Positions 46,013 through 58,272 of a stretch of 64,000 bases of DNA are shown here, piece by piece. Each line of letters starts with the position of its first letter. Position 1 is the first letter of the stretch. The notes below the pieces were generated by a model that was not told the origin of the DNA, did not search any database, and saw nothing but the letters and a program-made list of their open reading frames with translations. The position numbers were made by a program, and so were the translations under genes. Source of the DNA: Pseudomonadota bacterium (lineage in GTDB: Bacteria; Pseudomonadota; Gammaproteobacteria; Burkholderiales; Burkholderiaceae_C); NCBI GenBank assembly GCA_040387435.1, contig JAZKDR010000019.1:331-64330 (forward strand). Direction: 5' to 3'.

Positions 46013-46366
46013 TCAGCTGCCCCGGTAAGTGGAGTAGCTCCACGGGCTGACGAGCAGGGGCACGTGGTAATGCTGGGCGGTGTCGGCCACGCCGAAGTCG
46101 AGGCTGACCAGGTTGAGAAAAGCCGGCTCGGGCAAGGCGACACCGCAAGCGCGGAAATACGCAGCGACATCAAACACCAGCCGGTAATGGCCCGCCTTGA
46201 GGGTGGCGCTGTCGTAGAGCAGGCCGTCGGGGTTGCGGCCATCGGCGTTGAGCGTGAACTGTTTGACCAACGTGGCCTCGCCACCTTGTGTGGTGTACAG
46301 CGAGACCGCCATGCCGGCAGCAGGTTTGCCATGCATGGTGTCCAGTACGTGTGTGCTCAAGCCCAT
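46013..46366 (-). CDS. uraH: 5-hydroxyisourate hydrolase
   Basis: MGLSTHVLDTMHGKPAAG... with the C-terminal YRGS tetrapeptide diagnostic of HIU hydrolases. Start at 46366 sits 5 nt after AAGGA. Confidence 0.92.
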   Translation of the reverse strand: MGLSTHVLDTMHGKPAAGMAVSLYTTQGGEATLVKQFTLNADGRNPDGLLYDSATLKAGHYRLVFDVAAYFRACGVALPEPAFLNLVSLDFGVADTAQHYHVPLLVSPWSYSTYRGS

Positions 46367-46439
46367 GGCCATCCTTTTTGAAATGCTGCTGCGGCGGCGC
46401 GAGGTCCATCACCCCGAATGCCCCGTTTTCGGTTCACTG

Positions 46440-46455
46440 AAAGTGTATACAGTTT
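46440..46455. promoter_or_regulatory. Candidate GntR-family operator in the uraH / gntR-puuE divergent region
   Basis: aaagTGTATACAgttt is a near-perfect 16-bp palindrome with a perfect 8-bp core, placed 27 nt upstream of the GntR start. Confidence 0.35.
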
Positions 46456-46481
46456 TGGTGATTGAAGCTATCATCAAAGCC

Positions 46482-47174
46482 ATGCAATCTTCCGCCGCAG
46501 CCGTTGCCGCCTCCGCCAACCCCACCCATGCGATCGTCGAGGCCCTGACCAGGGCCATCGTCGAGCACCGGCTGCACCCCGGCACCAAGCTGGCAGAACA
46601 AAAACTGGCCGACCATTTCGGCGTCTCGCGCACGCTGGTCCGCCAGGCCCTTTTCCAGCTGTCGCAAAACCGCCTGATACGACTGGAGCCGGCACGCGGT
46701 GCCTTCGTCGCCGCGCCGTCGGTGATCGAGGCGCGCCAGGTGTTTGCGGTGCGCCGCATGCTGGAAGCGGAAATGACGCGCGCCTTTGTACGCGAGGTCA
46801 CCCCCGCGAAGATCAAGGCACTGAAAGACCATGTCGCCAAAGAAAAAGCTGCAGTGGCGCGCGACGATGCGGCCAGCCGTACCGAACTGCTTGGCGATTT
46901 CCATGTCCGCATGGCCGAGCTCATGGGCAATGAAGTGCTGGCGCAATTGCTGGGCGAGCTGATTTCGCGCTGCGCCCTCATTACCCTGATGTACCAGACC
47001 GCCAGCGCCGCAGAACATTCTGCCGACGAGCATTCCGGCATCATCCGCGCCATGGCTGCCAGGGACGAAGCCCTTGCCGTGCAACTGATGACCGAGCACC
47101 TGCTCAGCGTCGAAAAGAACCTTGCTTTTGACCGCAAGGTACCGAGCAACGATTTGTCGATGGCGCTGTCATGA
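46482..47174 (+). CDS. GntR-family (FadR/FCD subfamily) transcriptional regulator
   Basis: Start trimmed to the ATG at 46482. The wHTH is LAEQKLADHFGVSRTLVRQALFQLSQNRLIRLEPARGAFV, followed by an FCD-like C-terminal domain. An ATGA overlap couples it to puuE. Confidence 0.85.
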   Translation: MQSSAAAVAASANPTHAIVEALTRAIVEHRLHPGTKLAEQKLADHFGVSRTLVRQALFQLSQNRLIRLEPARGAFVAAPSVIEARQVFAVRRMLEAEMTRAFVREVTPAKIKALKDHVAKEKAAVARDDAASRTELLGDFHVRMAELMGNEVLAQLLGELISRCALITLMYQTASAAEHSADEHSGIIRAMAARDEALAVQLMTEHLLSVEKNLAFDRKVPSNDLSMALS

Positions 47175-48124
47175 GCTCAAGCTATCCACGGGATCTCGCA
47201 GGTTACGGCCGACATGTGCCACATGCGCAGTGGCCCGGCAAGGCACGCATCGCGGTGCAGTTCGTACTGAATTACGAAGAAGGCGGGGAGAACTCTGTGC
47301 TGCACGGCGATGCAGGATCGGAGCAGTTTCTCTCGGAGATGTTCAACCCGCCATCGTTTGCCGACCGCCACCTGAGCATGGAGAGCATTTACGAATACGG
47401 CTCGCGTGCCGGTGTCTGGCGCATCTTGCGCGAGTTCGAGAAACGCAAACTACCGCTGACGGTGTTTGGCGTCGGCATGGCCTTGCAACGCCAGCCCGAC
47501 GTGACGGCCGCCTTTGTCGAACTCGGCCATGAAATTGCCTGCCACGGCTGGCGCTGGATCAACTACCAGCAGATCGATGAAGCCACCGAGCGCGAACACA
47601 TGCGCCTGGGCCTGGACGCCATTGAGAAACTGACGGGCAACCGCCCGCTCGGCTGGTACACCGGTCGCGACAGCCCCAACACACGCCGGCTGGTCGCAGA
47701 TGACGGCCACCTGGTCTACGACAGTGATTACTACGGCGACGACCTGCCCTTCTGGACGGACGTGCAGCGCACCGACGGTGTGGTGGTGCCAAGGCTTATC
47801 GTGCCCTATGCGATGGACACCAACGACATGCGCTTCTCGCTGCCGCAGGGTTTCTCGCAGGGCGATGATTTCTTCACCTACCTGAAGGGCAGCTTTGACG
47901 CACTTTATGCGGAAGGCTCACCCGATGGCGAAGACAGGCCCAAAATGCTCAGCATAGGCATGCACTGCCGGCTGCTGGGCAGGCCCGGCCGCATCGTTGC
48001 GCTGCAGCGTTTTCTCGACCATGTCGAAAAACATTCCCACATTTGGGTATGCCGTCGTATCGAGATCGCCAGGCATTGGGAGAAAACACATCCCCCTTCA
48101 ACACCTGGCGGAGGCCGGACATGA
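47171..48124 (+). CDS. puuE: Allantoinase PuuE (polysaccharide-deacetylase fold)
   Basis: 317 aa with YPRDLAGYG...WPG.ARIAVQFVLNYEEGGENSVLHGD, the PuuE hallmark. Confidence 0.9.
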   Translation: MSSSYPRDLAGYGRHVPHAQWPGKARIAVQFVLNYEEGGENSVLHGDAGSEQFLSEMFNPPSFADRHLSMESIYEYGSRAGVWRILREFEKRKLPLTVFGVGMALQRQPDVTAAFVELGHEIACHGWRWINYQQIDEATEREHMRLGLDAIEKLTGNRPLGWYTGRDSPNTRRLVADDGHLVYDSDYYGDDLPFWTDVQRTDGVVVPRLIVPYAMDTNDMRFSLPQGFSQGDDFFTYLKGSFDALYAEGSPDGEDRPKMLSIGMHCRLLGRPGRIVALQRFLDHVEKHSHIWVCRRIEIARHWEKTHPPSTPGGGRT

Positions 48125-49905
48125 GCATCACCCTCGACCAGGTCAACCAGGCCTCTCATGCCGAAGCGCTGCAGTTGCTCGACGGCCTGTATGAACACTC
48201 GCCGTGGATTGCCGACAAGGCCTTGCACCAACGCCCCTTTGGTTCACTGGCCCAACTCAAACATGAAATGGTGCGGGTGCTCGGAGAAGCCGGCCGCGAT
48301 GCGCAGGTCGCGCTCATCCGGGTCCACCCCGAACTGGCCGGCAAGGCCATGGTCAGCCAGAGCCTGACGACGGAATCGACCCACGAGCAGAAAACCGCCG
48401 GCCTCACGCAGTGCTCGCCAGACGAGCTGGCTAAGATCCAGCGCCTGAACCGCGAATACGACGCGAAATTCGGCTTCCCTTTTGTGCTGGCTGTGCGCGG
48501 CACGCGCGGCAGCGGCCTGACCAAGCAGCAGATCATGGCCACTTTTGTGCGCCGCCTGAACAACCACCCCGACTTCGAATTGCAGGAATGCCTGCGCAAC
48601 ATTCACCGCATTGTCGAATTGCGCCTCAACGACAAGTTCGGCGTGCACCCGGACACGGGAAACGACGTGTGGGACTGGCACGAAGGCCTCGCGCAGTACA
48701 GCGACCCTGGCTACCTTGAGAAAGGCCAGCTCACGGTGACCTACCTGACGGACGCACACCGCGCCTGCGCCGCCTTCATTTCAAAGACTATGCACGAGTG
48801 CGGTTTTGATGAGGTGCGCATCGACGCCGTGGGCAATGTCGTCGGCATTTACATAGCCGAAAAAGCTGGCGCTAAAACCCTGCTCACCGGCAGCCATTAC
48901 GACACCGTGCGCAACGGCGGCAAATACGACGGCCGGCTGGGCATCTTCACACCCATGGCCTGCGTGCGCGAACTGCACCGCCAGGGCCGCCGCCTGCCCT
49001 TCAACCTGGAAGTGGTCGGCTTTGCCGAAGAAGAAGGCCAGCGTTACAAGGCGACCTTTCTCGGCTCGGGCGCACTGGTGGGCGACTTCAAACCCGAGTG
49101 GCTGGACCAGAAGGACGCTGACGGCATCACCATGCGTGACGCGATGGCCCATGCCGGCATGAACCCCGCGGACATTGCAGGCATCAAACGCGAGGCCGAC
49201 AACTATCTTGGTTTTGTCGAAGTGCACATCGAGCAGGGTCCGGTCCTCAACGAGCTGGGCTTGCCGCTCGGCATCGTGACCTCCATCAATGGCAGCGTGC
49301 GTTACCTGTGCGAGATCACCGGCGTCGCCAGCCACGCAGGCACCACACCCATGAACCGTCGGCGCGACGCGGCCAGCGCGGCCGCCGAACTGGCGCTCTA
49401 CCTCGAAAAACGCGCCGCACAGGACAGCGACTCTGTCGGCACCATGGGCATGCTGCAGGTGCCCAACGGCTCCATCAACGTGGTGCCGGGCCGTTGTCTG
49501 TTTTCACTCGACATGCGCGCGCCGCTCGACACACAGCGCGATGCCATGGCCGCCGATGTTCTCAGGGAACTGAATGCCATCTGCGAACGCCGCGGCGTGC
49601 AGCTCACACTGGAGCTGACCGAAAAGGCAGCCGCCGCGCCCAGCCACCCGGCCTGGCAGGCGCGCTGGGAAGCGGCCGTGCGTGCCCTCAACCTGCCGAT
49701 TTTTGCCATGCCCAGTGGCGCCGGCCACGACGCCATGAAGATCCACAAGATCATGCCGCAGTCCATGCTGTTTGTGCGCGGCCAGAACTCCGGCATCAGC
49801 CACAACCCGCTTGAAAGCACGACCAGCGACGACATCCAGCTCGCGGTCGATGCCTTCCGGTTTTTACTGGGCAGCCTCGCCACAGAAGTCAGCAAAGCTC
49901 AATGA
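48121..49905 (+). CDS. uraD-allC: Bifunctional OHCU decarboxylase / allantoate amidohydrolase (M20) fusion protein
   Basis: Start at the ATG at 48121 (MSITLDQVNQAS), with an ATGA overlap on puuE. The N-terminal ~175 aa are UraD-like (HPELAGK...FPFVLAVRG). The remaining ~415 aa are an M20 amidohydrolase (GSHYDTVRNGGKYDG, EEEG, HAGTTPM). Confidence 0.85.
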   Translation: MSITLDQVNQASHAEALQLLDGLYEHSPWIADKALHQRPFGSLAQLKHEMVRVLGEAGRDAQVALIRVHPELAGKAMVSQSLTTESTHEQKTAGLTQCSPDELAKIQRLNREYDAKFGFPFVLAVRGTRGSGLTKQQIMATFVRRLNNHPDFELQECLRNIHRIVELRLNDKFGVHPDTGNDVWDWHEGLAQYSDPGYLEKGQLTVTYLTDAHRACAAFISKTMHECGFDEVRIDAVGNVVGIYIAEKAGAKTLLTGSHYDTVRNGGKYDGRLGIFTPMACVRELHRQGRRLPFNLEVVGFAEEEGQRYKATFLGSGALVGDFKPEWLDQKDADGITMRDAMAHAGMNPADIAGIKREADNYLGFVEVHIEQGPVLNELGLPLGIVTSINGSVRYLCEITGVASHAGTTPMNRRRDAASAAAELALYLEKRAAQDSDSVGTMGMLQVPNGSINVVPGRCLFSLDMRAPLDTQRDAMAADVLRELNAICERRGVQLTLELTEKAAAAPSHPAWQARWEAAVRALNLPIFAMPSGAGHDAMKIHKIMPQSMLFVRGQNSGISHNPLESTTSDDIQLAVDAFRFLLGSLATEVSKAQ

Positions 49906-51286: not shown

Positions 51287-51302
51287 TGGCACTGTTTTTG
51301 CT
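51287..51302 (+). promoter_or_regulatory. sigma54 (-24/-12) promoter of the NMT1-type ABC transporter operon
   Basis: TGGCAC-tgttt-TTGCT matches the TGGCAC-N5-TTGCW consensus exactly, including GG-N10-GC spacing. It lies 63 nt upstream of the ATG at 51365. Confidence 0.7.
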
Positions 51303-51364: not shown

Positions 51365-52420
51365 ATGACCAAGACCACCGCATCCCCCTTTTCGCTGCTG
51401 CCTCTGGCCGCCAAGGTCGCCGGCGCATTCGTCGTCGCTGCCGCCTTCACCACGGCCCATGCGCAAAACACGCCCATCAAGTTCCAGCTCGACTGGCGCT
51501 TTGAAGGCCCCGCCGCGCTGTTCCTGACGCCGGTCGCCAAAGGCTATTTCAAGGACAACAAGCTCGACGTCACGGTGGATGCCGGCAACGGCTCCGGCGG
51601 CGCCGTCACGCGTGTGGCGTCCGGCACCTATGACATGGGTTTTGCCGACCTCGCGGCCCTGATGGAATTCCACGCCAACAACCCCGATGCGCCCAACAAG
51701 CCCGTCGCCGTGATGATGGTCTACAACAACACGCCCGCCTCCGTGATGGCGCTGAAGAAGTCCGGCATCACCAAGCCGTCCGACCTCAACGGCAAGAAGA
51801 TGGGGGCACCGGTGTTCGACGCCGGTCGCCGCGCTTTCCCGATCTTCGCCAAGGCCAACAAGATTTCCGGCTTCACCTGGACGGCCATGGACCCCCCGCT
51901 GCGCGAAACCATGCTGGCCCGCGGTGACATCGACGCCATCACCGGTTTCACCTTCACCTCGCTCCTCAACCTCGAAGCCCGCGGCGTCAAGGCCGAAGAC
52001 GTCGTGGTGCTGCCTTATGCAGACTTCGGCGTGAAGCACTACGGCAATGCCGTCATCGTGTCGCCCAAGCTCATCAAGGAAAATCCGGCCGCCATCAAGG
52101 CCTTCCTGCTGGCCTTCACCAAGGGCATGAAGGACGTCGTGACCGACCCGGCTGCCGTTATCGCCTACGTGAAAGAGCGTGACGGCATCATCAACGTGCC
52201 GCTCGAGACCCGCCGCCTGAAGCTGGCCATCGACACCGTCATCAACAGCCCTGATGCCCGCGCGGAAGGTTTTGGCCAGGTCAAGGGTCCGCGCCTGTCG
52301 CTCATGGCCTCGGAAGTGTCGGACGCCTTCAACACCAAGACCCGCGTGAACCCTGAAGCAGTCTGGAACGGTACCTTCCTGCCAACGACAGCCCAGCTCA
52401 ACGTCCTGCCAAAAAAATAA
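51365..52420 (+). CDS. ABC transporter substrate-binding protein, NMT1/THI5-like (NitT/TauT family)
   Basis: 351 aa with a signal peptide then IKFQLDWRFEGPAALFLTPVAKGYFKD, typical of NMT1-like SBPs. Confidence 0.85.
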   Translation: MTKTTASPFSLLPLAAKVAGAFVVAAAFTTAHAQNTPIKFQLDWRFEGPAALFLTPVAKGYFKDNKLDVTVDAGNGSGGAVTRVASGTYDMGFADLAALMEFHANNPDAPNKPVAVMMVYNNTPASVMALKKSGITKPSDLNGKKMGAPVFDAGRRAFPIFAKANKISGFTWTAMDPPLRETMLARGDIDAITGFTFTSLLNLEARGVKAEDVVVLPYADFGVKHYGNAVIVSPKLIKENPAAIKAFLLAFTKGMKDVVTDPAAVIAYVKERDGIINVPLETRRLKLAIDTVINSPDARAEGFGQVKGPRLSLMASEVSDAFNTKTRVNPEAVWNGTFLPTTAQLNVLPKK

Positions 52421-52454
52421 GCCGGGACATTTCACCTCTTCAGCCCCCCACTTC

Positions 52455-53282
52455 ATGACTACCCCCACTGACCTGCCGCTGTTCGTCGATTTTTCCGACG
52501 TCTGGCTCGCCTACAACGAAGAGCTGCTCGCGCAGCAGAAATTTGCGGTCGAAGCCATCGACATGAAAGTCCGGCAAGGCGAATTCATCGCCATCGTCGG
52601 GCCTTCAGGTTGCGGCAAGTCAACCTTCATGAAGCTGGCCACGGGCCTGAAGATGCCATCCAGGGGCCACATCATCATCGACGGGCGCGAAGTCAACGGC
52701 CCGCTCAAGATATCGGGCATGGCTTTCCAGGCCCCGTCGCTGCTGCCCTGGCGCACGACGCTGGACAACGTGCTGTTGCCGCTGGAAATCGTGGAACCCT
52801 ACCGCAGCAGTTTTCGCGAGAAGAAAAAGGAATACGCCGAGCGTGCCCGCAAACTTTTGCAGAGCGTCGGCCTGGGCGGCTACGAGGACAAGTTTCCCTG
52901 GCAGCTGTCGGGCGGCATGCAGCAGCGAGCCAGCATTTGCCGTGCGCTTATCCATGAACCCAAGATGCTGCTGCTGGACGAGCCCTTCGGCGCGCTGGAC
53001 GCCTTCACGCGTGAAGAACTCTGGTGCACGCTGCGCGACCTCTGGACGGTGCAGAAATTCAACGTCATCCTGGTCACGCACGACCTGCGCGAATCGGTCT
53101 TCCTGGCCGACACCGTGTATGTCATGAGCAAGAGCCCTGGCCGCTTCGTCGTCAAACGCCAGATCGAGTTGCCGCGCCCGCGTGACCTGGAAGTCACTTA
53201 CACCAAAGAATTCAGCGACATCGTGCATGAACTGCGGGGCCATATAGGCGCCATACGCCAGACCACTGCCGTACCAGCCTGA
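52455..53282 (+). CDS. ABC transporter ATP-binding protein (NitT/TauT family)
   Basis: 275 aa with Walker A GPSGCGKST, signature LSGGMQQR and Walker B LLLDEP. Confidence 0.92.
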   Translation: MTTPTDLPLFVDFSDVWLAYNEELLAQQKFAVEAIDMKVRQGEFIAIVGPSGCGKSTFMKLATGLKMPSRGHIIIDGREVNGPLKISGMAFQAPSLLPWRTTLDNVLLPLEIVEPYRSSFREKKKEYAERARKLLQSVGLGGYEDKFPWQLSGGMQQRASICRALIHEPKMLLLDEPFGALDAFTREELWCTLRDLWTVQKFNVILVTHDLRESVFLADTVYVMSKSPGRFVVKRQIELPRPRDLEVTYTKEFSDIVHELRGHIGAIRQTTAVPA

Positions 53283-53293
53283 AGAGCCTTCAC

Positions 53294-54061
53294 ATGAACA
53301 AAAAACAACTCGAACGCTGGGCGCCCTGGGCATTGCTGGTCGCCGTCATCGCCATCTGGCAATTCATCTGCGCGGCTTTCAGCGTCTCCGAATTCATCTT
53401 CCCCAGCCCATGGCGCATTGCCGAGCAGACCTGGGAGTTCAAATGGGTGATCCTGGGCCACGCCTGGCGCACGTACTGGGTCACCATGGCCGGCTTCGGC
53501 CTGGCCATCGTGATCGGGGTCATGCTGGGCTTTGTGGTGGGCTCGTCCCGCCTGGCTTATGCCGCCGTTTACCCCTTGATGACAGCCTTCAACGCCCTGC
53601 CCAAGGCGGCGTTTGTGCCCATTCTGGTGGTCTGGTTCGGCATCGGCATCGGTCCGGCCATCCTGACGGCTTTCCTGATCTCCTTCTTTCCCATCATGGT
53701 CAACATCGCCACCGGCCTGGCGACGCTGGAACCTGAACTCGAAGACGTGTTGCGCGTGCTGGGCGCCAAACGCTGGGACGTGCTCATCAAGGTGGGCCTG
53801 CCACGCTCGATGCCCTACTTTTACGGCTCGCTGAAGGTCGCCATCACGCTGGCGTTCGTCGGCACCACCGTGTCGGAGATGACGGCTGCCAATGAAGGTA
53901 TCGGCTACCTGCTGATCTCTGCAGGTTCTGCGATGCAGATGGGTCTGGCGTTCAGCGGTCTGGTCGTCGTGGGCGCCATGGCTATGGTGATGTACGAGCT
54001 CTTCAGCTACATCGAGAAGAACACCACCGCCTGGGCCCACCGCGGTTCGCAGGGCGAGTGA
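53294..54061 (+). CDS. ABC transporter permease (NitT/TauT family)
   Basis: 255 aa with about six TM segments and an EAA-like loop (LEDVLRVLGAKRWDVLIKVGLP). Confidence 0.9.
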   Translation: MNKKQLERWAPWALLVAVIAIWQFICAAFSVSEFIFPSPWRIAEQTWEFKWVILGHAWRTYWVTMAGFGLAIVIGVMLGFVVGSSRLAYAAVYPLMTAFNALPKAAFVPILVVWFGIGIGPAILTAFLISFFPIMVNIATGLATLEPELEDVLRVLGAKRWDVLIKVGLPRSMPYFYGSLKVAITLAFVGTTVSEMTAANEGIGYLLISAGSAMQMGLAFSGLVVVGAMAMVMYELFSYIEKNTTAWAHRGSQGE

Positions 54062-54170: not shown

Positions 54171-55214
54171 CTAGCCGTGGATTTCCGATTCGCCGCTTCG
54201 GGCCAGCATCTCCATCAGCTTGCGCCGTATCAGGATGCCAGGCCTGTCCGAGTCCATTGAAAACTCGACGCCCCGCCGGCGCAGGTCGACCACGGCATCG
54301 GGGTCTGTGGATTCCAGGATGTCCTTGTCCTCGCGCGTGATCTCCGCATCGAAGTCGATCAGCATCTGCGCCGGGCAATCGGCTTCGGTGTCATTGCGAA
54401 ACAGCCACTGGCACAGCTGCATGTTGCCGTCGTCTATGGGCGTGAAGCAGTTGATGATGATGTGCCGTATGCCCGAGGGGTACTCGATGTCCAGCCGACG
54501 CGAGAAGGGCAGGAAATAGGCGTTGCGCATGTGGCGCGTGGTGATGGGCTCACGCACACCGCTGATGCGCTGGTAGCGCTCGGGGTTGGCCGCATCGATC
54601 ACGGTTTCCGCATAAAAGCCGGTGTCGTTTTCAACCAGTTCGTACTTGCTCGGTTTGGGACTGGCGGCCACACCAAAAGTGGCGCGATGCACAAAGCTGA
54701 AATGCGAGTTGTCGAATGAGTTCTCCAGCGCACGCATCGGGCTGGTCTGCCAGCGCTCGTAAAACTGGAAGATGGTGCGGTAGGCCGGGTCCGAAAATTC
54801 CGGAATGTCGGGGATGTCCGCTATCGGCTCTTCCAGTGCGACCCATGCGTAACCGTAACGTGCCATGCAGTGGTAGGACGTCGTCTTGTAGTCCGGCATG
54901 ATGGTCCTGCCGGCCTCGTATTGCGGAATCACAACGACCTGCCCACTGCGGTCATAGGTCCAGCCGTGGTAGCCGCACTGGATGCGGCCCTGCCCGCAAG
55001 CCTTGCCCTCCGTGTCGACACACCAGCCTTTGGAAAGACGGGCCGTGCGGTGGCAACAACGGTCGCGCAGTGCTGCGGGCTGCCCGTCGGCATCAAGGAA
55101 CAGTACGATGTTTTCACCGAGCAGGGTGAAGGGTTTGGGCCCCGCAGACAGGTCGGCCAGCGGCATGACGGCGTGCCAGTGTTTGCGAAGTACGGGTTGT
55201 TGGGTTACCAGCAT
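54171..55214 (-). CDS. Rieske [2Fe-2S] non-heme-iron oxygenase alpha subunit-like protein
   Basis: Start trimmed to the ATG at 55214 (MLVTQQPVLRKHWHAV). Rieske motif CCHRTARL...CGYHGWTY with a C-terminal catalytic domain. No reductase or ferredoxin gene is adjacent. Confidence 0.85.
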   Translation of the reverse strand: MLVTQQPVLRKHWHAVMPLADLSAGPKPFTLLGENIVLFLDADGQPAALRDRCCHRTARLSKGWCVDTEGKACGQGRIQCGYHGWTYDRSGQVVVIPQYEAGRTIMPDYKTTSYHCMARYGYAWVALEEPIADIPDIPEFSDPAYRTIFQFYERWQTSPMRALENSFDNSHFSFVHRATFGVAASPKPSKYELVENDTGFYAETVIDAANPERYQRISGVREPITTRHMRNAYFLPFSRRLDIEYPSGIRHIIINCFTPIDDGNMQLCQWLFRNDTEADCPAQMLIDFDAEITREDKDILESTDPDAVVDLRRRGVEFSMDSDRPGILIRRKLMEMLARSGESEIHG

Positions 55215-55239
55215 TGAAGCGCTCCTTGAGTGGAAATAA

Positions 55240-55295
55240 CAGGAGCAATTTCCGGCCGGCACTGTGCTTGTGCCGGCTGAACGCTTCTACTCCGC
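55240..55295 (-). promoter_or_regulatory. Structured leader copy 1, candidate NMT1-motif (xanthine/urate) riboswitch
   Basis: RNA sense: GGAG-UAGAAGCGUUCA-GCCGGCAC(aagcaca)GUGCCGGC-CGGAAAUUG-CUCC. The loop sequences are identical in all three copies while the helices differ but stay paired. Followed by AUUUCCACUCAAGGAGCGCUUCAAUG. Confidence 0.6.
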
Positions 55296-55333
55296 GGGGG
55301 GATTTTAACAATGAACATAAAAAATAGATGTCG

Positions 55334-56365
55334 TCAGTTTGAGGCGTGGGTTTTGAGATGCATGGCACGCAGGTGTTCACCCACCGTGCACGACTCAAAA
55401 GCCGATACGCCATCGGTGAGGCAGGTGGCCACCGGCTGCACCAGCGCCTCGTAATCGGGGTTGTAGAAAAAAGGGATGGAGTGCCTGGGTTTGCCGCCGC
55501 TGAACACATTGCGCACGCGGTGTGGATTGGAGTGGTAACGCCCATTGGTCCAGCGCGGAATCATGTCACCCAGATTGACCACCAGGCTTGCGGGAATGGG
55601 CGGTGCCGGGACCCAGCTCCCGTCAGGCATGCTGACCTCCAGCCCGCCATGGCTGTCCTGCGCAAGGATGGTGATGGCGCCCCAGTCTGTGTGCGCGCCC
55701 GCACCAAAGGTCTTGCCATCGGCATTCACGGGTTGTGGCGGGTAACGCAGGAAACGCAGCGTCACCATGGGTGAGTCATGCATGCCGTCGAAGTAGTCTT
55801 CCGGCAAGTCAAGGGACAAGGCCATCAGCTGCATCAGGCGCACCGCAAGCCGGGACATCAGCGCTATGTAGGACGACGAATTTTCCGCGAGTCCCGGCAA
55901 CCCATCCGGCCACTGGTTCATGCCGTAGGTGTGGTGCTTGCGAACGACGTAGGGGTGATGGGCCGGGTAGTCGATGCCGCAGTAAAAACTTTCCTTGAGG
56001 TCGGGCAGCGCATCGGCGTCGAGCGTTTGTGCACCCAGCGCCTCGTAGCCCCTTGAGCAGGAGGAGTGCCTGGTGGCAACAGCATCCTTAAGGTCTGCGG
56101 AGAGATCGAACAGCTGCGCCACCCCCTTGAACTGGCGGTCGATCACATCCTGGGCGATGCCATGGTGGGTGACATAGAAAAACCCAGCGGCTTGCGCAGC
56201 AGCACGCATGCCTGCTGCCACTTCTGCGCAGCGCGGCCCGCCGGGTTCCAGTGCGTCCGACAAGTCAATGACGGGAATTTTCAGGTCACTTCCGCTATCG
56301 GATAAGGCGACGGCGGATGGTGTTCGATTGAAAACAGGCTTTGTGGCCTGGGTGGCGGTCAGCAT
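55334..56365 (-). CDS. 2-oxoglutarate/Fe(II)-dependent oxygenase (isopenicillin-N-synthase-like family)
   Basis: 343 aa with an N-terminal DIOX_N-like IPVIDLS...GFFYVTHHGI and a C-terminal H.D...H facial triad region (GAHTDWGAITIL ... HRV). Confidence 0.82.
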   Translation of the reverse strand: MLTATQATKPVFNRTPSAVALSDSGSDLKIPVIDLSDALEPGGPRCAEVAAGMRAAAQAAGFFYVTHHGIAQDVIDRQFKGVAQLFDLSADLKDAVATRHSSCSRGYEALGAQTLDADALPDLKESFYCGIDYPAHHPYVVRKHHTYGMNQWPDGLPGLAENSSSYIALMSRLAVRLMQLMALSLDLPEDYFDGMHDSPMVTLRFLRYPPQPVNADGKTFGAGAHTDWGAITILAQDSHGGLEVSMPDGSWVPAPPIPASLVVNLGDMIPRWTNGRYHSNPHRVRNVFSGGKPRHSIPFFYNPDYEALVQPVATCLTDGVSAFESCTVGEHLRAMHLKTHASN

Positions 56366-56387
56366 GAAGCGCTCCTTGAGTGGAAAT

Positions 56388-56443
56388 CAAGAGCAATTTC
56401 CGACTTGCACCGTTGCGGTGCAGGTTGAACGCTTCTACCCTTG
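56388..56443 (-). promoter_or_regulatory. Structured leader copy 2, candidate NMT1-motif (xanthine/urate) riboswitch
   Basis: RNA sense: CAAGGG-UAGAAGCGUUCA-ACCUGCACCG(caa)CGGUGCAAGU-CGGAAAUUG-CUCUUG, followed by AUUUCCACUCAAGGAGCGCUUCAUG. Confidence 0.6.
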
Positions 56444-56456
56444 TCCATGGATCAGC

Positions 56457-56473
56457 AGCAAATTTCGCGCCAA
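56457..56473 (-). promoter_or_regulatory. sigma54 (-24/-12) promoter reading into leader copy 2 and the 2OG oxygenase
   Basis: Minus strand TTGGCGC-gaaat-TTGCT has GG-N10-GC spacing. The predicted start site falls at about 56446, just before the first helix of the leader (56443). Confidence 0.65.
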
Positions 56474-56577
56474 TTTGGCCACCAGTCCAACATGGAACAC
56501 CCACGCATCCCGACATTCGACATATGTATTTAGGCAATTTCCCTAGAAGCACCTCGACCATCGTGCGGCAGCAGGAA

Positions 56578-56594
56578 TTGGCACGCGAAATGCA
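56578..56594 (+). promoter_or_regulatory. sigma54 (-24/-12) promoter reading into leader copy 3 and the SBP-deaminase operon
   Basis: TTGGCAC-gcgaa-ATGCA has GG-N10-GC spacing. The predicted start site at about 56604 coincides with the first helix of the leader (56605). Confidence 0.6.
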
Positions 56595-56604
56595 TCACCT
56601 GTCG

Positions 56605-56663
56605 CAAGAGTAGAAGCGTTCAGCCCCCATGCACCAGCCTGGGTCGCCCGGAAATTGCTCTTG
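56605..56663 (+). promoter_or_regulatory. Structured leader copy 3, candidate NMT1-motif (xanthine/urate) riboswitch
   Basis: CAAGAG-UAGAAGCGUUCA-GC.CCCA(ugcaccagcc)UGGG..GC-CCGGAAAUUG-CUCUUG. The second helix is interrupted by a small internal loop. The SBP start codon lies 75 nt downstream. Confidence 0.55.
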
Positions 56664-56737
56664 AACCCGTCCTGCCTGTAGACGTTGCAACGCACGTTCA
56701 CTGGCCGGTGTTTTCAAGTGTTCTTACCGGAGTCGAC

Positions 56738-57775
56738 ATGAACCGTCTTCTTAAACGGCGAGTATTCCTCGCATCCCTCGCTTCCGCCTCCACCCTCGCC
56801 GCACCTGCCGTCTGGAGCCAGTCCACCCGCCTGACACCCGTCAAATTCACGCTGGACTTTCGCGTGACCGGCCAGACATCACCTTTCTTTCTCGCGCAAA
56901 GCAGGGGTTACTACAAGGACGAAGGCCTGGACGTCACCATTGATGTGGGTGCAGGCTCTGTCACCTCCATCACCCGCATTGCCAGCGGTGTCTACCAGAT
57001 GGGTCTGGGCGACATCAGCTCGCTCGTCGAGTTCAATGCACAGAACCCGGGGACACCCTTGGTGCAGGCGGTGTACCAGTACTACAACCGCGCACCCTTT
57101 GTCATCATCGGCCGCAAGGACCGCGGCATCACCAGCGATTTCCGTAGCCTGGAAGGCAAAAAGATTGCAGCCGCAGCGGTTGAATCGACACGCAGAAGCT
57201 GGCCGATGGTGGCACGCAAGCTGCGTCTGAAACCAGATCTTTTCGCCTGGTCTACCACCGATTTCAGCGCGCGTGACAACGTGGTGGTGCGCGGCGATGT
57301 TGATGGTGCAACTTACTTCCATGACTCCGCCGTCTCGCTCTTTGCGCGCATGAAGCAGGACGACCTCGCTGTGCTGCAGTACTCCGATGCAGGTGTCAAC
57401 CTCTATGGCAATGCAATTCTTGCCAGCAGCAACCTGATCGCGCAGAACCCCAAGGTCGTCGCGGCCTTCCTGCGGGCCACCAACCGCGCCATCGTCGAAA
57501 CATTTGCCAACCCTGCAGCGGCCATTGCGGCCACCCGCCAGCGCGAGCCCATCCTAGACGAAAAGGTGGAGCTGGAACGCTGGCGCGTGACGTCCCAGTA
57601 CGTAGGCGCAGCCGACACGCGCGGACATGGAATCGGCGACGTCCGCAAACTTCTCATCGAGCAGCAGGTCGACGAGGTGGTGGATGTGTATGGCCTGAAG
57701 ACGCGTCCCAGCGCAGATGGCCTCTTCAACCTGTCCATGCTGCCGGCAAAAGCAGACCGCATGCTGAAGGCCTGA
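56738..57775 (+). CDS. NMT1/THI5-like (NitT/TauT family) substrate-binding protein, orphan (no adjacent permease or ATPase)
   Basis: ATG at 56738 sits 5 nt after GGAG. MNRLLKRRVFLASLASASTLAAPAVWSQ is a signal peptide, possibly Tat-type (RR). Then VKFTLDFRVTGQTSPFFLAQSRGYYKDEGLD. Confidence 0.82.
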   Translation: MNRLLKRRVFLASLASASTLAAPAVWSQSTRLTPVKFTLDFRVTGQTSPFFLAQSRGYYKDEGLDVTIDVGAGSVTSITRIASGVYQMGLGDISSLVEFNAQNPGTPLVQAVYQYYNRAPFVIIGRKDRGITSDFRSLEGKKIAAAAVESTRRSWPMVARKLRLKPDLFAWSTTDFSARDNVVVRGDVDGATYFHDSAVSLFARMKQDDLAVLQYSDAGVNLYGNAILASSNLIAQNPKVVAAFLRATNRAIVETFANPAAAIAATRQREPILDEKVELERWRVTSQYVGAADTRGHGIGDVRKLLIEQQVDEVVDVYGLKTRPSADGLFNLSMLPAKADRMLKA

Positions 57776-57777
57776 GC

Positions 57778-58272
57778 ATGGACAGCACGACACAGCTCAA
57801 TGCGCGCGATGCCGGCTATATGGCCCAGGCCATTGCCTGGTCCCGTACGGCACGGGAACGCGGCAACCGGCCGTTTGGTGCCGTCATCGTTTCAGCCGAA
57901 GGCCAGCTCCTCACGGAGGCCTACGCCAACTCGGTCGAAACCGGCGACTGCACGGGCCATGCAGAGACCAATGCCGTACGGCAGGCCTCCAGCACGATAG
58001 GCCGGCAAACACTGCAGGCGGCGACGCTGTATTCATCGGCCGAGCCCTGCGTGATGTGCGCCGGTGCCATCTTCTGGTCGGGCATAGGCCGTGTGGTGTT
58101 CGGCATCGATGCAGTCAGCCTGCGTGTATTTCGCGGTGAGCCTGCCGAGCAGCGCGACGTTGAACTGTCATGCCGCGACGTGTTTGCCGCCTCACCACAC
58201 GCAATTGAATGCATAGGGCCGGTAATGGTGGCCGAGGCCAGCGAGCCGCACCTGGGCTTCTGGAAGAGCTGA
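57778..58272 (+). CDS. CDA-fold (CMP/dCMP-type zinc) nucleobase deaminase, small guanine-deaminase-like
   Basis: 164 aa with PFGAVIV, HAETNAV and EPCVMCAGAI zinc motifs. Its size and motifs resemble the small Bacillus-type guanine deaminase. It starts 3 nt after the SBP stop. Confidence 0.75.
   Translation: MDSTTQLNARDAGYMAQAIAWSRTARERGNRPFGAVIVSAEGQLLTEAYANSVETGDCTGHAETNAVRQASSTIGRQTLQAATLYSSAEPCVMCAGAIFWSGIGRVVFGIDAVSLRVFRGEPAEQRDVELSCRDVFAASPHAIECIGPVMVAEASEPHLGFWKS

Follow-up and report, generated by a model that had tools for sequence, protein, structure and literature searches.

Three xanthine-I riboswitch leaders at a purine-catabolic locus of a Burkholderiales bacterium, with candidate ON-type oxygenase platforms and sigma-54-type promoter boxes

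The window analysed here is a stretch of 64,000 nucleotides (contig JAZKDR010000019.1) from a Pseudomonadota bacterium of the order Burkholderiales. Within 1.5 kb of it, three structured 5′ leaders stand ahead of genes for a Rieske oxygenase (copy 1), a 2-oxoglutarate (2OG)/Fe(II) dioxygenase (copy 2) and an NMT1-type periplasmic binding protein (copy 3). Copies 2 and 3 form a divergent pair and copy 1 is intercistronic, on the minus strand behind the dioxygenase gene (Table 1). An earlier reading of the DNA made from the letters alone (hereafter the sequence-only reading) had described three leaders with shared strands before these start codons, and all three are present in the sequence. We report on the identity of the leaders, on how two of them may control translation and on promoter-like boxes that abut them.

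Three xanthine-I leaders and the genes they precede

When the Rfam 15 covariance models were run over the whole 64-kb window, exactly three matches exceeded a gathering score, and all were to RF03054 (Xanthine riboswitch aptamer, NMT1 RNA; gathering score 36 bits). The three matches are full length and lie 9 to 19 bits above that score, which bears out the NMT1 or xanthine riboswitch class proposed by the sequence-only reading. In RNA sense, copy 1 reads GGAG-UAGAAGCGUUCA-GCCGGCAC...GUGCCGGC-CGGAAAUUG-CUCC (AUG at 55214, minus strand), copy 2 reads CAAGGG-UAGAAGCGUUCA-ACCUGCACCG...CGGUGCAAGU-CGGAAAUUG-CUCUUG, with one C·A mismatch in P2 (AUG at 56365, minus), and copy 3 reads CAAGAG-UAGAAGCGUUCA-GCCCCCA...UGGGUCGC-CCGGAAAUUG-CUCUUG (AUG at 56738, plus). 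The distances from the end of the Rfam match to the AUG are 23, 20 and 72 nt, respectively. Each leader thus consists of the strands UAGAAGCGUUCA and (C)CGGAAAUUG between helices that vary by copy yet pair. The 13-mer GTAGAAGCGTTCA has three exact occurrences in 64 kb, solely at the three leaders, and 0.84 chance matches would be expected in 64 kb with two mismatches tolerated. The isolated aptamers of copies 1 and 2 are both predicted to adopt the Rfam structure, and for copy 1 this aptamer fold is the minimum free energy (MFE) structure.

Table 1. Coordinates of the leaders, platforms, promoter-like boxes and controlled genes in the window (SD, Shine–Dalgarno sequence; TSS, transcription start site)
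Feature	Position	Strand	Remarks
Xanthine-I aptamer, copy 1	55238..55297	minus	RF03054, 55.1 bits, E=1.6e-9, model positions 1-56
Xanthine-I aptamer, copy 2	56386..56445	minus	RF03054, 45.2 bits, E=9e-7, model positions 1-56
Xanthine-I aptamer, copy 3	56603..56665	plus	RF03054, 52.4 bits, E=9.1e-9, model positions 1-56
Predicted expression platform, copy 1	55212..55237	minus	AUUUCC, SD AAGGAG, anti-J1 box GAGCGCUUC, AUG 55214-55212
Anti-J1 box GAGCGCUUC, copy 1	55216-55224 (+ strand numbering)	minus-sense leader	Predicted to pair with J1 strand GAAGCGUUC (55279-55287)
Predicted expression platform, copy 2	56363..56385	minus	Anti-J1 box GAGCGCUUC at + strand 56366-56374; AUG 56365-56363
Linker and predicted platform, copy 3	56666..56740	plus	Hairpin, UUCAAG complementary to P1 3′ strand, SD CCGGAG, AUG 56738
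Sigma-54-type -24/-12 box TGGCGCGAAATTTGCT	56457..56472	minus	Predicted TSS ~56446, P1 base of copy 2
Sigma-54-type -24/-12 box TGGCACGCGAAATGCA	56579..56594	plus	Predicted TSS ~56604-56606, first P1 nucleotide of copy 3
Sigma-54-type box	51287-51302	plus	Upstream of second NMT1/ABC operon, without riboswitch
Rieske [2Fe-2S]/VanA_C-type oxygenase (copy 1)	54171..55214	minus	Pfam Rieske + VanA_C
2OG/Fe(II) dioxygenase, pcbC/isopenicillin-N-synthase-like (copy 2)	55334..56365	minus	Pfam DIOX_N + 2OG-FeII_Oxy
NMT1/THI5-like periplasmic binding protein (copy 3)	56738-57775	plus	Pfam NMT1
CDA-fold TadA-like deaminase, after NMT1 gene	57778-58272	plus	Pfam dCMP_cyt_deam_1; NCBIfam TadA below cutoff

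The shared core is, base for base, that of the crystallised Ideonella aptamer: U5 A6 G7 A8 A9 G10 C11 G12 U13 U14 C15 A16 in its 5′ part and C34 G35 G36 A37 A38 A39 U40 U41 G42 in its 3′ part. The pocket bases A6, G7, A8, A9, G10, C11, G12, G35, A38, A39, U40, U41 and G42 are present in all three copies. In the crystal, U5·G42 and A6–U41 lengthen P1, G7-A8-A9-G10 stack along P1, C11 pairs with G35, G12 is sandwiched between C34 and G35, A39 and U40 line the pocket, and U13-U14-C15 pair with G36-A37-A38 as P2a (PMC8266621). The ‘invariant internal loops’ of the sequence-only reading therefore hold as shared strands and not as loops throughout, because U5·G42 and A6–U41 extend P1 and UUC/GAA is P2a. 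The only departure from the Rfam consensus is shared by all three window copies, whose J2 begins with C where the consensus has G; J2 of copy 3 is the 3-nt CCG of the crystallised Ideonella RNA and of the published Hydrogenophaga intermedia reporter. J2 is CG in copies 1 and 2, and GG in the copy 2 ortholog of the closest listed relative (L054).

Relatives were collected by a pattern scan of 185,579 species genomes, which gave at least 120 loci (L001–L120). This pattern demanded GG at J2, so that the window-type CG and CCG variants would not match it. A relaxed pattern applied to those loci and the window gave 145 instances, 142 of them unique, among the matches listed; all aptamer counts and leader statistics below refer to these listed matches. 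The P1 and P2b pairs covary in the 142 unique aptamers, drawn from 120 other genomes in addition to the window: the second P2b pair is C–G in 56, G–C in 45, U–G in 13, U–A in 10, G–U in 9 and A–U in 6. The P2a pair 13/38 is G–C in 86 of the 145 instances, U–A in 56 and G·A in 3, and the U–A class agrees with the U13–A38 pair of the crystal. The J2 variant follows gene class, with Comamonadaceae NMT1-type leaders mostly CCG and Rieske and pcbC-type leaders GG.

The listed leaders closest to those of the window come from Polaromonas-like Burkholderiales, and the exact dioxygenase protein was seen on one NCBI assembly contig (GCA_040384145.1) and in one raw-read assembly. The window sequences had no match in the published Stockholm alignment, a weak negative, the alignment rows being gapped. 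Re-scanning 18 related loci with Rfam gave 30 RF03054 matches, mostly divergent pairs 100–250 bp apart; because most of these matches are so arranged, divergent aptamer pairs are the rule in Comamonadaceae, as drawn for H. intermedia S1.

The sequence-only reading had taken helices that vary while staying complementary, which is true of the outer P1 and P2b, as a sign of selection on RNA structure and not on a DNA site. The rival is that the repeats are operators bound by a transcription factor such as the GntR/FCD regulator encoded nearby; the copies are indeed in intergenic DNA close to promoters, and the window has a GntR-family gene at 46233–47174. A motif conserved regardless of direction would have meant a DNA site, but the aptamers are always sense to the downstream gene: for 115 of the 140 instances with a predicted same-strand downstream open reading frame (ORF), that ORF either has a BLAST match to the Rieske, pcbC or NMT1 protein of the window or carries an amidohydrolase-type motif (ORFs of ~450 residues recognised by their N terminus). 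Moreover, the helices covary as sequence changes, the covariance-model matches are strand-specific, copy 1 is intercistronic and the class has solved ligand-bound RNA structures (PMC8266621). Covariation and strand specificity effectively refute the operator reading, whose probability we regard as negligible, and the claim of selection on RNA structure is upheld. It is also very improbable that these are NMT1-fold aptamers with an altered ligand, their J2 being CG or CCG instead of the consensus GG. In favour of it, the Rfam consensus writes the first J2 position as an upper-case G, its mark of high conservation, and G is also what L054 has there in its copy 2 ortholog, against C in all three window copies. 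However, the Ideonella RNA, with a xanthine affinity of about 4 μM, itself carries C34 in its wild-type form, the changes C34A, C34U and C34G alter affinity 4-fold at most, and its authors do not regard the position as highly conserved (PMC8266621). The ligand-contacting bases are all unchanged in the window copies. An altered specificity caused by the J2 C variant was rejected, C34 being the mutation-tolerant wild-type base of the crystal (PMC8266621).

From the RF03054 matches above the gathering score, the crystallised core, the canonical gene partners and the mostly divergent pairs in relatives, it is near certain that the three leaders belong to the xanthine-I (NMT1-motif, RF03054) riboswitches, and each is predicted to gate translation initiation of its own gene. 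Identity of the core with an RNA measured by isothermal titration calorimetry implies that the window aptamers probably bind xanthine, urate and 8-azaxanthine selectively. The window resembles the known class (PMC7373994, PMC8266621) in its P1, J1, P2a, J2, P2b fold, in every pocket nucleotide, in the associated genes and proteobacterial host, in a divergent aptamer pair as in H. intermedia S1, and in translational platforms with terminators absent; it differs in that 1.5 kb holds three copies, of which one is intercistronic. The riboswitch class, gene context and layout are already published, and any Rfam-based pipeline would label the three sites.

The gene partners published for the class are Rieske/hcaE-like, pcbC/DIOX_N, NMT1/tauA and tadA-like deaminase genes (PMC7373994), and the genes at this locus match them, as the sequence-only reading had expected of an NMT1-motif context. 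Among solved structures, the Rieske oxygenase is nearest to enzymes that act on purine-like scaffolds: the saxitoxin hydroxylases SxtT/SxtDIOX, and NdmA/NdmB, which N-demethylate methylxanthines. Beside the Rieske gene, the window ORFs scanned include no VanB/HpxE-like reductase gene, a difference from Klebsiella pneumoniae hpxDE as far as that system is cited in PMC7373994 (Riva et al. 2008). The 2OG dioxygenase has PDB relatives 9ovh, 6jyv and thymine dioxygenase 5c3p.

The purine-catabolic neighbourhood that the sequence-only reading had pointed to is borne out by purine-to-urea genes elsewhere in the window, which codes for XdhA/XdhB, an OHCU decarboxylase, a PuuE-like allantoinase/deacetylase, two M20 amidohydrolases, a second NMT1/ABC transporter, the GntR/FCD regulator, UreD (urease accessory) and UrtBCDE (urea transport). 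One plus-strand ORF of 620 amino acids (48043–49905) joins OHCU decarboxylase and M20 peptidase domains and is either a fusion or two genes joined by the mechanical ORF call. The genes for the second NMT1-type binding protein and its ABC ATPase and permease (51365–54061, plus strand) converge on the Rieske gene.

Expression platforms and the direction of control

In copies 1 and 2 the 25 nt ahead of the AUG are equal, bar an extra A beside the copy 1 start (UUUCCACUCAAGGAGCGCUUCA(A)UG). They include the box GAGCGCUUC, made up of the last three Shine–Dalgarno (SD) bases and the spacer, which in both copies forms a 9-bp complement to aptamer nucleotides G7–C15 (GAAGCGUUC; −14.3 kcal/mol), that is, to the ligand-pocket strand and the 5′ half of P2a. 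The AUUUCC of the copy 1 platform is likewise complementary to the aptamer GGAAAU. In simulated growing transcripts of both copies, the MFE structure gives up the aptamer fold for the alternative near nucleotide 80, just as the box emerges, and in the unconstrained ensemble of the full leader the unpaired probability of the paired box is near 0. The mean predicted accessibility of the start site (positions −14 to +3 relative to the AUG) is 0.32–0.36 in free RNA and increases to 0.62–0.63 with the aptamer enforced (copy 2, 0.32 to 0.63), and no element able to mask the SD after aptamer formation was found in copies 1 and 2.

Two controls bear on these values. Aptamer-to-start-site duplex energies were ranked against 400 start regions of other predicted genes in the same loci, giving ranks of 0.0075 for copy 2, 0.0225 for copy 1 and 0.85 for copy 3; among the 29 short Rieske leaders listed the median rank is 0.0225, and 69% of them are at 0.05 or below. 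In the second control each true start region was exchanged for 12 unrelated ones and the leader refolded. Accessibility in the listed Rieske leaders goes from 0.25 free to 0.55 with the aptamer enforced, a gain that beats that of the swapped controls by 0.27 (Wilcoxon p=7e-9), and the pcbC-type leaders listed (n=6) show an excess of 0.18 (p=0.03). By alignment, AGGAGCGCUUC is kept in Polaromonas, Rhodoferax and Hydrogenophaga while the surrounding linker changes in sequence and length. Variovorax leaders are without the box; on manual inspection their P1 3′ strand GCUCUUUC appears to pair with GAAGGAGU, which appears to be a second masking solution that likewise excludes the aptamer.

Without ligand, then, G7–C15 of copies 1 and 2 would pair with the SD/spacer box and GGAAAU with AUUUCC, hiding the ribosome site; bound xanthine or urate would lock J1, P2a and P1 into the aptamer and block the 9-bp masking helix, so that the two oxygenases would be translated. 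Because binding and masking use the same nucleotides, those of the J1 strand GAAGCGUUC, the folding models predict that they exclude each other, and we judge it probable, with some reserve, that copies 1 and 2 are of an ON design, contrary to the published OFF assignment. The predicted masking of the SD by the pocket strand itself is a further difference of the window from the published class. The P2b of copy 2 is similar to that of Polaromonas Rieske-gene leaders (L113, L082 and L054 were compared). It seems that a duplication placed the riboswitch with its platform ahead of the dioxygenase gene and left copy 1 intercistronic.

Comparable logic is known from other riboswitches. The xanthine-II riboswitch, a guanine-riboswitch variant (PNAS 2022), also senses xanthine and accompanies dioxygenase, allantoinase and purine-catabolism genes; its architecture, on these similar genes, is described as a genetic ON switch, but it differs in an unrelated fold (the purine-riboswitch three-stem junction) and in candidate terminator stems that partly overlap the aptamer (PMC9295807). 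At our locus we rejected transcription-termination platforms, as there were no terminator-like sites in the leaders and the four in coding DNA were not above shuffles.

The add adenine riboswitch of Vibrio vulnificus is a translational ON switch in which a strand of the ligand-free aptamer pairs with the SD/start region and ligand frees the ribosome site. It has another fold and ligand, and its masking strand is the P1 3′ strand region, where copies 1 and 2 would use the J1 pocket strand.

Several points weigh against an ON assignment for copies 1 and 2. The aptamer-enforced state lies 8.8–9.5 kcal/mol above the free ensemble in a calculation that models no tertiary contacts, which is more than micromolar binding energy supplies unless such contacts or co-transcriptional kinetics compensate. 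The 29 Rieske leaders are phylogenetically related, which inflates the p-values; J1 is invariant, which leaves the masking helix unable to show compensatory covariation; and the start codons in other genomes are heuristic predictions. The swap control showed no excess in the 21 NMT1-type (p=0.17) or the 16 amidohydrolase-type leaders listed, whose aptamer-to-start-site duplexes were also no better than controls. Yu & Breaker (2020, RNA 26:960, PMC7373994) also described the class as a genetic OFF switch, and the experiment behind this, the sole one on direction in the class, opposes the ON call: an H. intermedia leader–lacZ fusion in E. coli, in which the J1 mutant M4 (A8U) expressed more than the wild type. 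It concerned one leader and one mutant in a heterologous host, with no ligand titration (PMC7373994). An OFF response is a trait described for a single member and does not define the family.

That all three copies work as published, with ligand turning translation OFF and so placing purine uptake, deamination and oxidation under product feedback, is possible though in our view unlikely. In its favour, copy 3 is orthologous to the H. intermedia S1 reporter and shares its CCCGGAAAUUG J2, and in that reporter the binding-dead M4 is the more highly expressed; our folding method, applied to the same leader, gives accessibilities of 0.53 for free RNA, 0.46 under the enforced aptamer fold and 0.63 for M4, a small OFF-ward shift that agrees in direction with the experiment, and the NMT1-type leaders as a group give no ON signal. 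However, A8U sits in the J1 strand, which can pair with start regions, so M4 is no clean read-out of direction; we also considered M4 disruption of a J1:start-site helix as the source of the published OFF result, but dropped this explanation, as folding the actual reporters gave just a small change, from 0.53 to 0.63. For copies 1 and 2 the OFF reading must further contend with an SD-spacer box that pairs with the ligand pocket itself, so that the ligand-free state is the masked one, and with a start site predicted to stay accessible once the aptamer has formed. The legend of Supplemental Figure S1 of Yu & Breaker notes architectures consistent with ‘ON’ (PMC7373994). We also tried to assign a polarity, ON or OFF, to the NMT1-type, amidohydrolase-type and enterobacterial leaders in general and gave this up, the predictions being mixed or equal to controls; an exact-k-mer anti-J1 search with an upstream-DNA control was invalid, because the divergent partner aptamer is a perfect upstream complement and G·U helices are missed.

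Copy 3, which precedes the binding protein and deaminase genes, would act through a different, long platform. Its linker of 72 nt from the end of the Rfam match (80 nt from G42) has a layout common to Comamonadaceae NMT1-type leaders: a GC-rich hairpin between CUUGAA, which overlaps the P1 3′ strand, and UUCAAG, followed by (UU)CCGGAG. Its MFE structure leaves the aptamer fold for an alternative once UUCAAG is transcribed, at length 128. Accessibility moves from 0.35 to 0.46 with the aptamer enforced (apo rank 0.08), a weak ON-ward shift that the NMT1-type class does not share, and the predicted structures give no direction of control for this copy.

In some, mostly Rhizobiales, leaders (L025, L031, L073, L077 and L103) a J1-complementary CCGCUUC(U) box is fixed at +34/35 past the aptamer, more than 100 nt ahead of the predicted start codon and often just after an AUG. 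This arrangement may be another platform, for example a leader ORF or a three-element switch.

Sigma-54-type boxes at the first aptamer nucleotide

We searched the window for the sigma-54 pattern TGGCRC-N5-WTGCW (−24 GG/−12 GC; consensus TGGCAC-N5-TTGCW), with a start expected about 12 nt downstream. It has only three matches in 64 kb, all upstream of purine operons: one ahead of copy 2, one ahead of copy 3 and one ahead of the second NMT1/ABC operon (Table 1). The two −24 elements at copies 2 and 3 are the sole inverted repeat in the intergenic region. In other genomes (alpha-, beta- and gamma-proteobacteria), 50 of 144 listed aptamers have such a box within 90 nt upstream, and nearly all of these 50 boxes end 14–19 nt before U5; the pattern is found in just 1.2% of 2,900 random control windows. 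Sigma-54 is unmentioned in the main texts of Yu & Breaker 2020 (PMC7373994) and Weinberg et al. 2017, which sets the boxes abutting the window aptamers apart from the published class, and searching the literature for work that connects sigma-54 with xanthine riboswitches gave nothing relevant.

These positions suggest that the boxes at copies 2 and 3 are sigma-54-dependent. Under nitrogen limitation, the predicted promoters would start two divergent transcripts at the P1 base of copies 2 and 3. No gene for an enhancer-binding activator was identified among the ~38 window ORFs scanned. A sigma-70 consensus scan also found nothing.

Copy 1 has no sigma-54-type box and begins 36 nt past the dioxygenase stop codon; it would be transcribed within the minus-strand operon or be served by its own weak promoter. 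The 36-nt spacer (55298–55333, minus strand) is AT-rich in a GC-rich region and holds TGTTAAAAT (~55305–55313), which is extended −10-like. This spacer could be an internal weak extended −10 promoter; otherwise copy 1 is merely intercistronic. At the second NMT1/ABC operon (51365–54061), neither the covariance model nor the J1 pattern found a fourth aptamer. One of the two NMT1-type systems, this one with its sigma-54-like box and no riboswitch, is apparently under nitrogen control only.

Meaning for the class and its hosts

What this locus adds to a known class is two leads, both computational: predicted ON-type oxygenase platforms and a recurrent coupling of the aptamer to sigma-54-type promoters. 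The predicted ON-type platforms conflict with the class-wide OFF label and match the ON reading of xanthine-II on similar genes. Yu & Breaker were puzzled that no member of the class seemed to activate genes that remove oxidised purines (PMC7373994); if the Rieske and 2OG oxygenase leaders are turned ON by ligand, this puzzle disappears. The class would then be one more in which a single type of aptamer serves both polarities, and both oxygenases would be candidate consumers, not producers, of xanthine or urate.

A sigma-54 box placed at the first nucleotide of the aptamer also gives a precise predicted 5′ end and suggests an AND gate, in which nitrogen limitation acts on transcription and purine on translation. 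In its fullest form the proposal is of one locus with two logics, copies 1 and 2 being ON and copy 3 OFF, over sigma-54 transcription beginning on the first aptamer base; as a whole we hold this to be distinctly doubtful. A weaker form would have at least part of the xanthine-I class ON, and the OFF call, made from a single J1 mutant, would not generalise. If the two-logic reading is true, high xanthine would shut off its own supply and switch on its own consumption.

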